Of a stretch of DNA of 6,257 nt, positions 1-3,000 are shown one piece after another. Position numbers: made by a program. Source of the stretch: a virus. Its lineage: Duplodnaviria > Heunggongvirae > Uroviricota > Caudoviricetes. The stretch's first letter is position 1. Each line of letters begins with the position of its first letter. Where the stretch lies: IMG/VR virus record IMGVR_UViG_2645727970_000006, one strand, 5' to 3'.

Positions 1-3000
1 TTTATTACGGAACTGTTTTAAAGACCTGCCGGGATTTCGTTATTATCCTGGTGAATAACTTTATCGACCGGGTAACAGTTACCGGGAATTTTCTGTTCGG
101 TTGCTGCAGTCACACACTCCTGCATTGTCCTGTGAACACTGACTGCAATATCAACTGGCTCTCCGGAAACAAGAAAAACTGTCAGAACAAGTGCAAATGC
201 TGTATTCATTGCCAGCATCCTTTTTGTATCGGACGTAAACGGGCCAGCATTGAAAGAATGCATATTTTATTTAATAACTCCCGTTCGTGTTTTCTCTTGT
301 TAATGGCATCTTCAGTAAATACAGGGTTACTGATAGTGACACCAATTTCAAAACAACCTTCAGACGTATTAACGTTTGGTAATAACGTTTCCATTATCGC
401 GTCCTCAACAATGAATTTTGTGATGCGGTGCCTGGTGCCTCCAGGTGACGTTAACCAGTTAACAATTAACGCCGGATACAGAGAATCCACCCATAACACT
501 GTTTTTGGTTTTAACTGTTCCGCGTGCGCTCAGCCGCATTCACCACATCACAAAATTCACTTTAAAAAGGGCGGCAGAGCAGTCACGGAGTAAAACTGAT
601 ACCGCCAAACGTCACCAGAAAATTGATAACAGAGGGCGTTGCAGCGGGGTTGTCACTTAAGCGTATGGTCAACCTGACAACCCGGTGTCCGCAACGGGGG
701 AAGGAATAACCCCGCCATACTTACCGCCGCGCCATTTCGCGGATTGCCACAACCGGAAGCGCACGGTCGACAAAAATTTAACGACAGGCTATCTATGAAC
801 CAGCTACCTCGCCGTGCGCTTTCGCGTTATGGTCTGACTTTTCAGGGAAATATCCTTTCAGTAAACTGTCAGTGCCGGATGCTCACCCGTGTCCGGCGCA
901 AGCACTCCACCTCACCCGTGGAGAACTCCTTAATTACCAACCTTAGCTTCGTTGGTTAGCTATTAACGCGGGTATGTAATCATTCTGGCAATGGTTAATG
1001 CCGCTGCTTTTTCCAGATTGGTGATATCCTGCTCCAGAGAGGACAGATTTTCAGCCTGCTTAGCCCTGACTTCATTAGCCCATTTCAGATCCTGCGCTGC
1101 ATTAATTTTCTGGTGCATCCACTCATAAAGTTCATCATTGGTATAGTCTGGCGCGATGATGACGGGTTCTCGTTTCTGCATACTGATTCCTCGCGGTGCT
1201 GTTTCGCTTATCAGCCATTAGATTTTGCCGAACTGGAAAGCACCTGTTTAAATTCGTTGAAGCTGTGAGCTTCTTCGCCTTCGGCAAGGCCTTCGAAGTA
1301 TTCTTCGTAAGCCTTTTCCATGATTGTGTCGAAATCCATATCACCCACCTGAATTTCTTTCCAGCCAGCGACGCGCTCCAGATTCGGTTTTAAACGTTTT
1401 GCTTTTGGTATACGTCATTGCGGTGAACGTACCGTCCTGGTTGGGGAACACGCCACATACCAGAGATTCGCTGTTGCCAAGATCGATAGTATCCATGCTG
1501 ACCTCATTTCCCCTTAACGCCGGGGTAGCGGAACAAAAACCTGCTGCATAGTTATTAAAGTTGAACCCTGCCGTCATGTTCTTACGCCTCGGGCTGGCTA
1601 CTTAACCCCTGACCACTGCCGGGTAACTCGAAGTATTTCCCTGCGTTCTGTGGGGCGGGGTGGGTTGGTATGTTGTTAAGGTAACAAGAGTTACCTTTCG
1701 AGTCAATACAATGTTGCAAAAGGTACATTTGAGGGCATAAAAAACCCGCAATGAATGCGGGTTCTGACTCAGTCTAAGTATTGATGTATTTGTGAAACTT
1801 TACCTTTAATGGTGTAACCACCATTCAGTTCGATGGGTTTGTAAAGCGGATTCAGTGACAACAAATAGATGTTTGGTCCGTCAATCGCAACTTTTTTTAG
1901 TGTTACGTTTGGCGTTCCTTCCAATTGGATTAAGATTATTTTTCCCACCAGTTCTCTAATGTTACTTGAGCATGGTGTGATCAGCACGGTAGATCCGTCG
2001 GGGATGGTTGGGAGGCCGTTAGAGTTTGTCATCGCATCTCCCTCAACATGCAATAAAAAAGAGTTTTCAGCGGTTTTTGTCATGACATCAACCCAGTTAT
2101 TAATACCAGGAATCTTGGTTACTGGACAACTCATATCCCAATAACCAGCCTGTTCCCACGTTAAAACGGGCAACCGGGCGATGTTGTCACTAATGTAAGG
2201 GTACTGATTCAGACGCAGATCATCGGTTTTATCGTGACAGTCCTTTCCATAAAGAATCCATTCAGGAGATTTGGAAAGCAATTTTGACAGTAGATACAAA
2301 TTCTCACCGTCAGGTTTTGAAGAGCCATTTTCCCATTTTGTTACGGATACACGAGATATGCCGATTGCTTTCGCAACCTGCTGTTGGGTTAATCCAACGT
2401 CTTTTCGACGATTCCGAATACGTTCGCTGATAGTGTTTTTCATGTAACCAATGTTACTACCAAGTGATGTTGCTATGGTTGACATTGTTATGTAACTATT
2501 GTTACCCTTCTGCTCGAAATAACAGGAGAGTTTTATGTTCAAAGATGATGTTCTGCGCTATTTCAAAAAAAAGCGACTAGTAGCTGAGGCTCTTGGAATT
2601 TCACATGTGGCTGTTGTGCGGTGGAAAGCAGTTATTCCCAAACTTCGCGCAATGGAACTGGATGAAATTACTAACGGTGAATTGAAATACAACCCAGAAC
2701 TTTACAAGAAGCAGGATAGCACCTCGAACGAAGGAAAGAATGATTCATGAAAATCAAGCATGAACACATCCGCATGGCGATGAATGTCTGGGCGCATCCG
2801 GACGGCGAAAAAGTACCGGCTGCGAAAATTACCAAAGCGTATTTCGAGCTGGGAATGACGTTCCCGGAACTGTATGACGACAGCCATCCGGAAGCCCTGG
2901 CCCGTAATACCCAGAAAATTTTCCGTTGGCTGGATAAAGACACCCCTGATGCTGTTGAAAAAATGCAGGCTCTGTTACCGGCGATCGAAAAGGCGATGCC

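Follow-up and report, generated by a model that had tools for sequence, protein, structure and literature searches.

The sequence analysed here, referred to below as the window, is a 6,257-nucleotide (nt) stretch of DNA assigned to the Caudoviricetes (IMG/VR record IMGVR_UViG_2645727970_000006). It is the immunity and early region of a lambdoid prophage. On its minus strand, the genes and spacers follow the order ydfA, ydfB, ydfC, a structured spacer of 341 nt, dicF, a spacer of 174 nt, dicB and ydfD, which is the order of the Qin prophage of Escherichia coli K-12 and also the order annotated in the closest genomes. The element under study is dicF, at positions 621 to 569. With a probability of roughly 95%, this element is read here as DicF, an Hfq-dependent trans-acting small RNA (sRNA) of Qin-type lambdoid prophages, lying in a typical dicBF operon and acting by the mechanism described in K-12. 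Knowledge of DicF dates from about 1990, and the RNA has its own Rfam family. The element is therefore already known, and its annotation is correct but ordinary, with nothing new on DicF itself.

The identity of the element was established as follows. Read directly on the minus strand, positions 621-569 are UUUCUGGUGACGUUUGGCGGUAUCAGUUUUACUCCGUGACUGCUCUGCCGCCC, which is 53 nt long and corresponds to the mature DicF sRNA (569..621), and they are followed by UUUUU at 568-564, a U5 tract that belongs to the intrinsic terminator of DicF. A U-tail of this kind is the Hfq-binding 3′ end of other Hfq-dependent sRNAs. The Rfam model of DicF (RF00039) matches positions 620-569 over model positions 1-52 of 52 with 76.7 bits (E 3.5e-16), where the curated gathering score is 48 bits. 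When the whole window was searched against 4227 Rfam families, this was the sole family that reached its gathering score. A segment of 111 nt around the element (540-650) is 100% identical (111/111) to E. coli K-12 MG1655, and alignment with the K-12 Qin locus gives 53 of 53 identical positions for dicF and 173 of 174 for the spacer between dicF and dicB. The match of minus-strand 569-621 to DicF is far above chance. The U-tract ends at 564, that is, 170 nt upstream of the start of dicB (ATG at 394-392). The sequence-only reading made before this analysis had placed an exact DicF with its U-tail on this strand and at this distance from dicB, and it had named an Rfam search as the check and mismatches in the ftsZ-pairing 3′ region as the sign that it was wrong. 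The search gave the score above, and zero mismatches to K-12 dicF were found, so that this part of the reading stands. The covariance-model score, the identity with K-12, the folded terminator with its U-tract, the synteny of the operon and the complementarity to ftsZ are all direct observations, and together they place 569-621 in the DicF family on all criteria that are accessible from sequence. Two plus-strand open reading frames (ORFs) predicted mechanically over dicF (51-593 and 505-660) were not taken as genes; no family search was made with them, and the closest annotated genome has no gene there.

The resemblance to DicF of K-12 Qin (RF00039; gene b1574) extends to structure and surroundings. 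Not only the RNA itself but also the hairpin, the U-tail and the ftsZ-complementary loop are the same; ydfABC lies upstream and dicB and ydfD lie downstream in both, and the DicF precursor and the dicB leader are nearly identical. In the minimum free energy (MFE) fold, positions 606-570 form the terminator hairpin (-15.9 kcal/mol), equal to the Rfam consensus structure, with an outer stem of 7 bp (606-600 with 576-570) and an inner stem of 5 bp (598-594 with 584-580). Nucleotides 25-44 of DicF (597-578) are complementary to positions -21 to -1 of the ftsZ mRNA. When RNAduplex was restricted to DicF nt 20-45, this region paired with the E. coli ftsZ leader at -16.9 kcal/mol, and CUCCG paired with the CGGAG of the ribosome-binding site. 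Published work assigns pairing with the ftsZ ribosome-binding site to the 3′ region of DicF, with support from compensatory mutants, and pairing with xylR and pykA to its 5′ end (PMC5069750). Repression of ftsZ and of further host mRNAs, which the sequence-only reading had attributed to DicF, is thus in agreement with the literature (PMC5069750). In the window copy, the corresponding 5′ region (nt 1-15; 621-607) is unpaired in the fold, and its pairing with xylR and pykA would be carried over from K-12 by sequence identity. Likewise, Hfq binding and in vivo repression of ftsZ, xylR, pykA and manX are expected for an RNA identical to that of K-12 (PMC5069750; PMC10448788).

The operon in which dicF is embedded is intact in all six of its elements, with zero frameshifts. 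The first gene is ydfA (1341..1496, minus strand like all the operon genes; Pfam DUF1391, 96.9 bits), and ydfB (1211..1339) and ydfC (963..1181) were recognized by their nucleotide identity to K-12, the latter being annotated as ydfC in the closest genome. For YdfC, a Pfam hit to TcA_TcB_BD (16 bits) is under the cut-off and was disregarded. Downstream of dicF, dicB (206..394) encodes a cell-division inhibitor of 62 amino acids (aa) with the Pfam DicB domain (127.4 bits) and 89% identity to K-12 DicB, and the ydfD homologue (18..209) encodes 63 aa with DUF1482 (88 bits) and 94% identity to K-12 YdfD. The start of ydfD overlaps the stop of dicB (ATGA). At the nucleotide level, identity to K-12 is 91.7% for ydfA, 95.3% for ydfB, 97.3% for ydfC, 96.8% for the ydfC-dicF spacer, 100% for dicF, 99.4% for the dicF-dicB spacer, 93.1% for dicB and 97.4% for ydfD. 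Thus, within the operon, conservation is highest in the non-coding dicF module. DicB acts via MinC and, in addition, gives protection from phages using ManYZ (PMC10448788), and K-12 YdfD is described in one report as a lysis protein that inhibits IspG (PMC8835842). The operon runs leftward and lies downstream of the repressor gene. The earlier statements that dicF is embedded in an early-left operon and that DicB and a YdfD-like lysis-type protein accompany it were confirmed, and the description of the operon as a cassette for manipulation of host division and envelope is fair, given these two activities.

In K-12, the operon is transcribed as one RNA from upstream of ydfA, no internal promoter was found, and both a terminated transcript of 1146 nt and a read-through transcript of 1608 nt are present (PMC10448788). 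RNase III produces a 190-nt DicF precursor, and RNase E generates the mature 5′ end of the 53-nt RNA (PMC10448788). The 3′ end of the 53-nt form comes from Rho-independent termination, and a 72-nt form comes from cleavage of the read-through transcript by RNase III (PMC5069750). Because the RNA is identical, this mechanism should carry over to the window copy, and DicF of the window would, by homology, have no promoter of its own. DicF is not a free-standing gene; the RNA would be processed from the operon transcript. The 568-nt region from ydfC to dicB (395-962) folds far better than shuffled sequences (MFE; z -4.7). In this fold, helix mapping gives a predicted 23-bp stem in the ydfC-dicF spacer (747..832; 832-807 with 772-747), which is a candidate RNase III site; the 5′ end of the 190-nt precursor is expected at about 754-758. 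It also gives a structured dicB leader (410..561) with a predicted 21-bp closing stem (561-541 with 430-410), which holds the expected 3′ end of the 72-nt form (550), and the RNase III cut may be placed there. A long stem enclosing DicF, made by pairing of the upstream CCGTGCGCTTC with the downstream GAGCGCACGCGG, was considered as the RNase III substrate and rejected, since the MFE fold puts these two ends in two separate stems.

The expected course of events in the window is then as follows. Leftward transcription would start at a PL-like promoter that lies directly downstream of the gene for the repressor. RNase III would cleave the long stem of the ydfC-dicF spacer to leave a precursor of about 190 nt, and RNase E would cleave in AU-rich single-stranded sequence, between AUCAAU and UUUCUGG, to make the mature 5′ end. 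The 3′ end would be given either by the terminator hairpin of DicF with its U5 (53 nt) or by RNase III in the dicB leader stem (72 nt). The terminator would be leaky, so that part of the transcripts would reach dicB and ydfD. Mature DicF would cover the ftsZ ribosome-binding site with nt 25-44, including CUCCG, so that translation is blocked and division stops, and its single-stranded 5′ region would repress xylR, pykA and manX. DicB, via MinC, and YdfD would add their effects on division and the envelope.

Elements related to DicF are found in other prophages. Four copies of dicF are reported for Sakai and 86-24, strains of enterohaemorrhagic E. coli (EHEC; Melson and Kendall 2019, cited via PMC7873438). 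The copies in lambdoid and Shiga toxin (Stx) prophages of EHEC and enteropathogenic E. coli occupy an early-left location, as in the window, several per genome, and are functionally indistinguishable from the window copy by sequence. Their virulence roles (activation of pchA, repression of stx2A) depend on the host strain. A different case is seen in Rac-type prophages. In some genomes, the match to the 111-nt query is limited to its last 35 nt, and in E. coli M10 this 35-nt match falls between sieB and kilR of a Rac-type prophage; a second match in K-12 is probably also in the sieB-kilR spacer of such a prophage. In this spacer of M10 (L004:1451-1694, corresponding to window 395-621), the hairpin and U5 score 39.1 bits with the DicF model, below its gathering score. 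The outer stem GGCGG...CCGCC, the U5 and a leader of about 170 nt are the same as in the window, but the loop and the 5′ region are different and the ACUCCG anti-ftsZ motif is missing, whereas the window element is a genuine DicF. Like dicF, the Rac-type hairpin precedes a gene for a cell-division inhibitor, kilR. The same terminator and leader before kilR and dicB mean that this module precedes two unrelated division inhibitors. The Rac element may be a so far uncharacterised paralogue of DicF acting on other targets, or no more than a shared terminator and leader module. In addition, the dicF-dicB spacer (362-571, minus strand) matches the full model of STnc100 (RF02076) with 38.7 bits (E 6.8e-06), which is below the gathering score of 47 bits. 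The STnc100/PasD family is prophage-associated, as is this spacer, but the spacer is here the 5′ untranslated region of dicB and not an established separate sRNA. The prophage sRNA STnc100 was recently linked to PasD sRNAs (bioRxiv 10.64898/2026.05.13.724894).

These comparisons bear on an alternative in which the hairpin and U5 serve mainly to attenuate transcription, so that less read-through from ydfABC reaches the toxic pair dicB-ydfD, and the sRNA is a by-product with little role here. The structure is indeed that of a canonical intrinsic terminator, and termination as well as read-through are known from the two K-12 transcripts mentioned above (PMC10448788). Furthermore, Rac-type prophages keep the stem, the U5 and the leader before kilR with a different loop and 5′ region, so that terminator and leader are conserved independently of the ftsZ-pairing motif. 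However, the loop and the single-stranded 5′ region, which are dispensable for termination, are 100% identical to K-12 DicF in the window. In K-12, a point mutation in the CUCCG loop (DicF9) reportedly abolishes ftsZ repression and filamentation and leaves termination intact, which argues against this alternative. Attenuation is also compatible with an sRNA role, and the two are not necessarily alternatives. As an explanation that replaces the reading as DicF, attenuation is very improbable.

The control region of the operon is of another origin than its body. Similarity to K-12 Qin starts about 45 nt upstream of ydfA, at GTTCCGCTACCCC, which places a mosaic junction at about 1540 on the minus strand. 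Upstream of the junction, alignment with K-12 showed that the promoter, the operators and the repressor are unrelated to dicA, dicC and dicBp. K-12 Qin has DicA and DicC with dicBp, whereas the window has a CI-like repressor of 238 aa with helix-turn-helix (HTH) and S24 domains together with a P22-Cro-like protein, and its promoter and operator region is unrelated to that of K-12. The DicA and DicC genes and a dicBp upstream of ydfA, which define a DicA-controlled dicBF operon, are thus missing from the window. Judged by sequence similarity, the operon body is of Qin type and the control module is not; the swapped immunity module is the only departure and represents ordinary lambdoid mosaicism.

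In this region, sequence reading revealed a putative leftward (PL-type) promoter on the minus strand (1678..1706), composed of TTGACT at 1706-1701, which is a good -35 hexamer, a 17-nt spacer and TACCTT at 1683-1678. Overlapping this promoter, at 1680-1695, is a perfect palindrome, GGTAACAAGAGTTACC, which is a candidate operator. It has relatives in the cI-cro region at 2491-2506 (1 mismatch) and 2443-2458 (2 mismatches), whose sequences are TGTAACTATTGTTACC and TGTAACCAATGTTACT, respectively. The palindrome at 2443-2458 lies inside the annotated N-terminus of the repressor, where the extension 'NIGYM' is kept in many homologues, down to 43% identity. This conservation may be that of operator DNA, and the true start of the repressor may be the ATG at 2442. 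Behind the repressor gene, a 9-bp GC-rich hairpin with U6 forms an intrinsic terminator (1742..1764, minus strand; -16.7 kcal/mol, z -3.65). In the scan for promoters and terminators, no relevant element came up on the minus strand, and this terminator as well as that of DicF went unreported; both were established by folding. An Rfam match to Trp_leader at 1736-1829 (26.5 bits) is due to chance and coincides with the terminator after the repressor gene; another, to CRISPR-DR57 at 5958-5996 (21 bits), is also a chance match. From its position and the operator-like palindrome, we infer that the dicBF operon is controlled by the local CI-like repressor. The sequence-only reading had the operon kept silent by the repressor. 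Control by the repressor is plausible on these grounds, but 'silent' is too absolute, since in K-12 the promoter fires spontaneously in a subpopulation and DicF accumulates in stationary phase (PMC10448788).

Several points weigh against the reading of the element as a DicF that is expressed and acts as in K-12. First, the -10 hexamer TACCTT is weak, and the promoter at 1678..1706 is absent from the list of the consensus promoter scan. Second, when the operator pattern was counted in shuffled sequences, 4 or more matches at 3 or fewer mismatches were reached by 30 of 200 shuffles, so that the count is not significant alone. Third, the RNase III sites were assigned from the MFE fold of a single sequence. 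Fourth, when RNAduplex was run without restriction, the whole DicF paired with the ftsZ leader at -38.5 kcal/mol, an energy reached by 65 of 500 shuffled DicF sequences. The whole-RNA duplex was therefore dropped as a test, and the claim of ftsZ pairing rests on identity with the tested K-12 RNA, not on an energy statistic. Finally, expression of the window copy, like its processing sites, promoter and operator and its local control, is deduced from sequence by homology and position. That the DicF sequence is a silent relic, untranscribed in this prophage because, for example, the swapped immunity module lacks a working promoter, is likewise very improbable. The loss of K-12 dicBp and the weakness of the replacement promoter speak for it. 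Against it stand six intact operon elements, an arrangement shared by 400 genomes at 80% or more of window coverage, and a TTGACT with an overlapping perfect palindrome exactly at the expected PL/OL (leftward promoter and operator), where a preceding strong terminator shields it from transcription of cI.

The repressor that probably controls this DicF operon deserves a separate description. The gene (1769..2485, minus strand) encodes HTH_3 and Peptidase_S24 domains, and the protein aligns along its length with lambda CI (3bdn). GDAM of the window protein (about 2029-2040) stands opposite GNSM of lambda CI, in which Ser is S149, so that Ala takes the place of the catalytic Ser. Both the Ala-Gly site (QAG) and the catalytic Lys (LKK) are retained. 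Self-cleaving repressors of the LexA/CI type combine a Ser-Lys dyad with an Ala-Gly site; here, Ala stands at the position of the nucleophile. When the repressor of the window and 17 homologues were aligned (18 sequences), GDAM was found in the window, in P0001, which represents a large E. coli cluster of 499 sequences, in P0002 and in P0005 from Salmonella, and the rest have G(D/E)SM. From LexA S119A and from CI, it is known that a protein with Ser changed to Ala should not cleave itself. Hence, RecA-stimulated self-cleavage of this repressor is unlikely, and it looks like a natural repressor unable to cleave itself. With Ala at the nucleophile position and no expected self-cleavage, direct SOS induction of the dicBF operon of the window is doubtful. 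K-12 DicA does not have the bond for cleavage, and its relief comes from the antirepressor Rem (PMC10448788); the control of K-12 Qin by DicA and Rem thus parallels the presumably non-cleaving repressor of the window. Tentatively, and with somewhat less than even confidence, it is suggested that the DicF/DicB/YdfD cassette of this lineage is under a Ser-to-Ala CI-like repressor, that release of DicF would be uncoupled from RecA-stimulated cleavage and need an antirepressor or other signals, and that this state was reached independently of DicA/Rem.

The remainder of the window is on the plus strand. According to Pfam, it contains a P22-Cro-like gene (2535-2750), a gene of the YdaT family (2747-3172), an O-like HTH replication gene (3180-4127) and a gene for a DnaC/IstB-like ATPase (4134-4880). 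Two further ORFs (4902-5672 and 5673-6110) correspond in order to the DUF1627 and DUF977 genes of the closest genome. The closest public matches, at 99.8% over 98% of the window, are E. coli FDAARGOS_1059 and the O111:H2 strain 12A. In the former, genes for exonuclease, excisionase and integrase come next after the module, beside potC and potD. The prophage of the closest genome keeps these three genes and its replication genes, whereas K-12 Qin is heavily deleted.

The dicF region is widespread. The arrangement of the whole window covers at least 80% of its length in the 400 genomes mentioned above. Of 5426 complete E. coli genomes, 4318 carry the dicF region, at a median of 2 and at most 9 places each. 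It also occurs in 28 phage records, including PPompW and Stx2a-phage records, and one of the 28, phage Tritos, is annotated with DicF. Matches in the record of Aeromonas phage AP1 (MT713136.1; 97.8% identity over 83% of the dicF-region query) and in one record of an Actinobacillus phage, both phages of unrelated hosts, are also counted among them, and these are likely to result from contamination or chimeric assembly. Among 30 listed of 4335 RefSeq E. coli matches, K-12 derivatives included, zero features are annotated at dicF (e.g., NZ_CP014348.1:3684648-3684758), and dicF may be routinely absent from automatic annotation.

The finding puts a known regulatory RNA at a place where ORF-based tracks, and the annotation by PGAP in the closest genomes, show nothing. 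The element adds a further copy to those of a prophage sRNA that is very common and is able to arrest host division and to rewire sugar metabolism, and in EHEC, DicF is reported to affect virulence genes. As an identical dicF-dicB module is found behind different immunity systems, the conditions under which DicF is released may differ between prophages.

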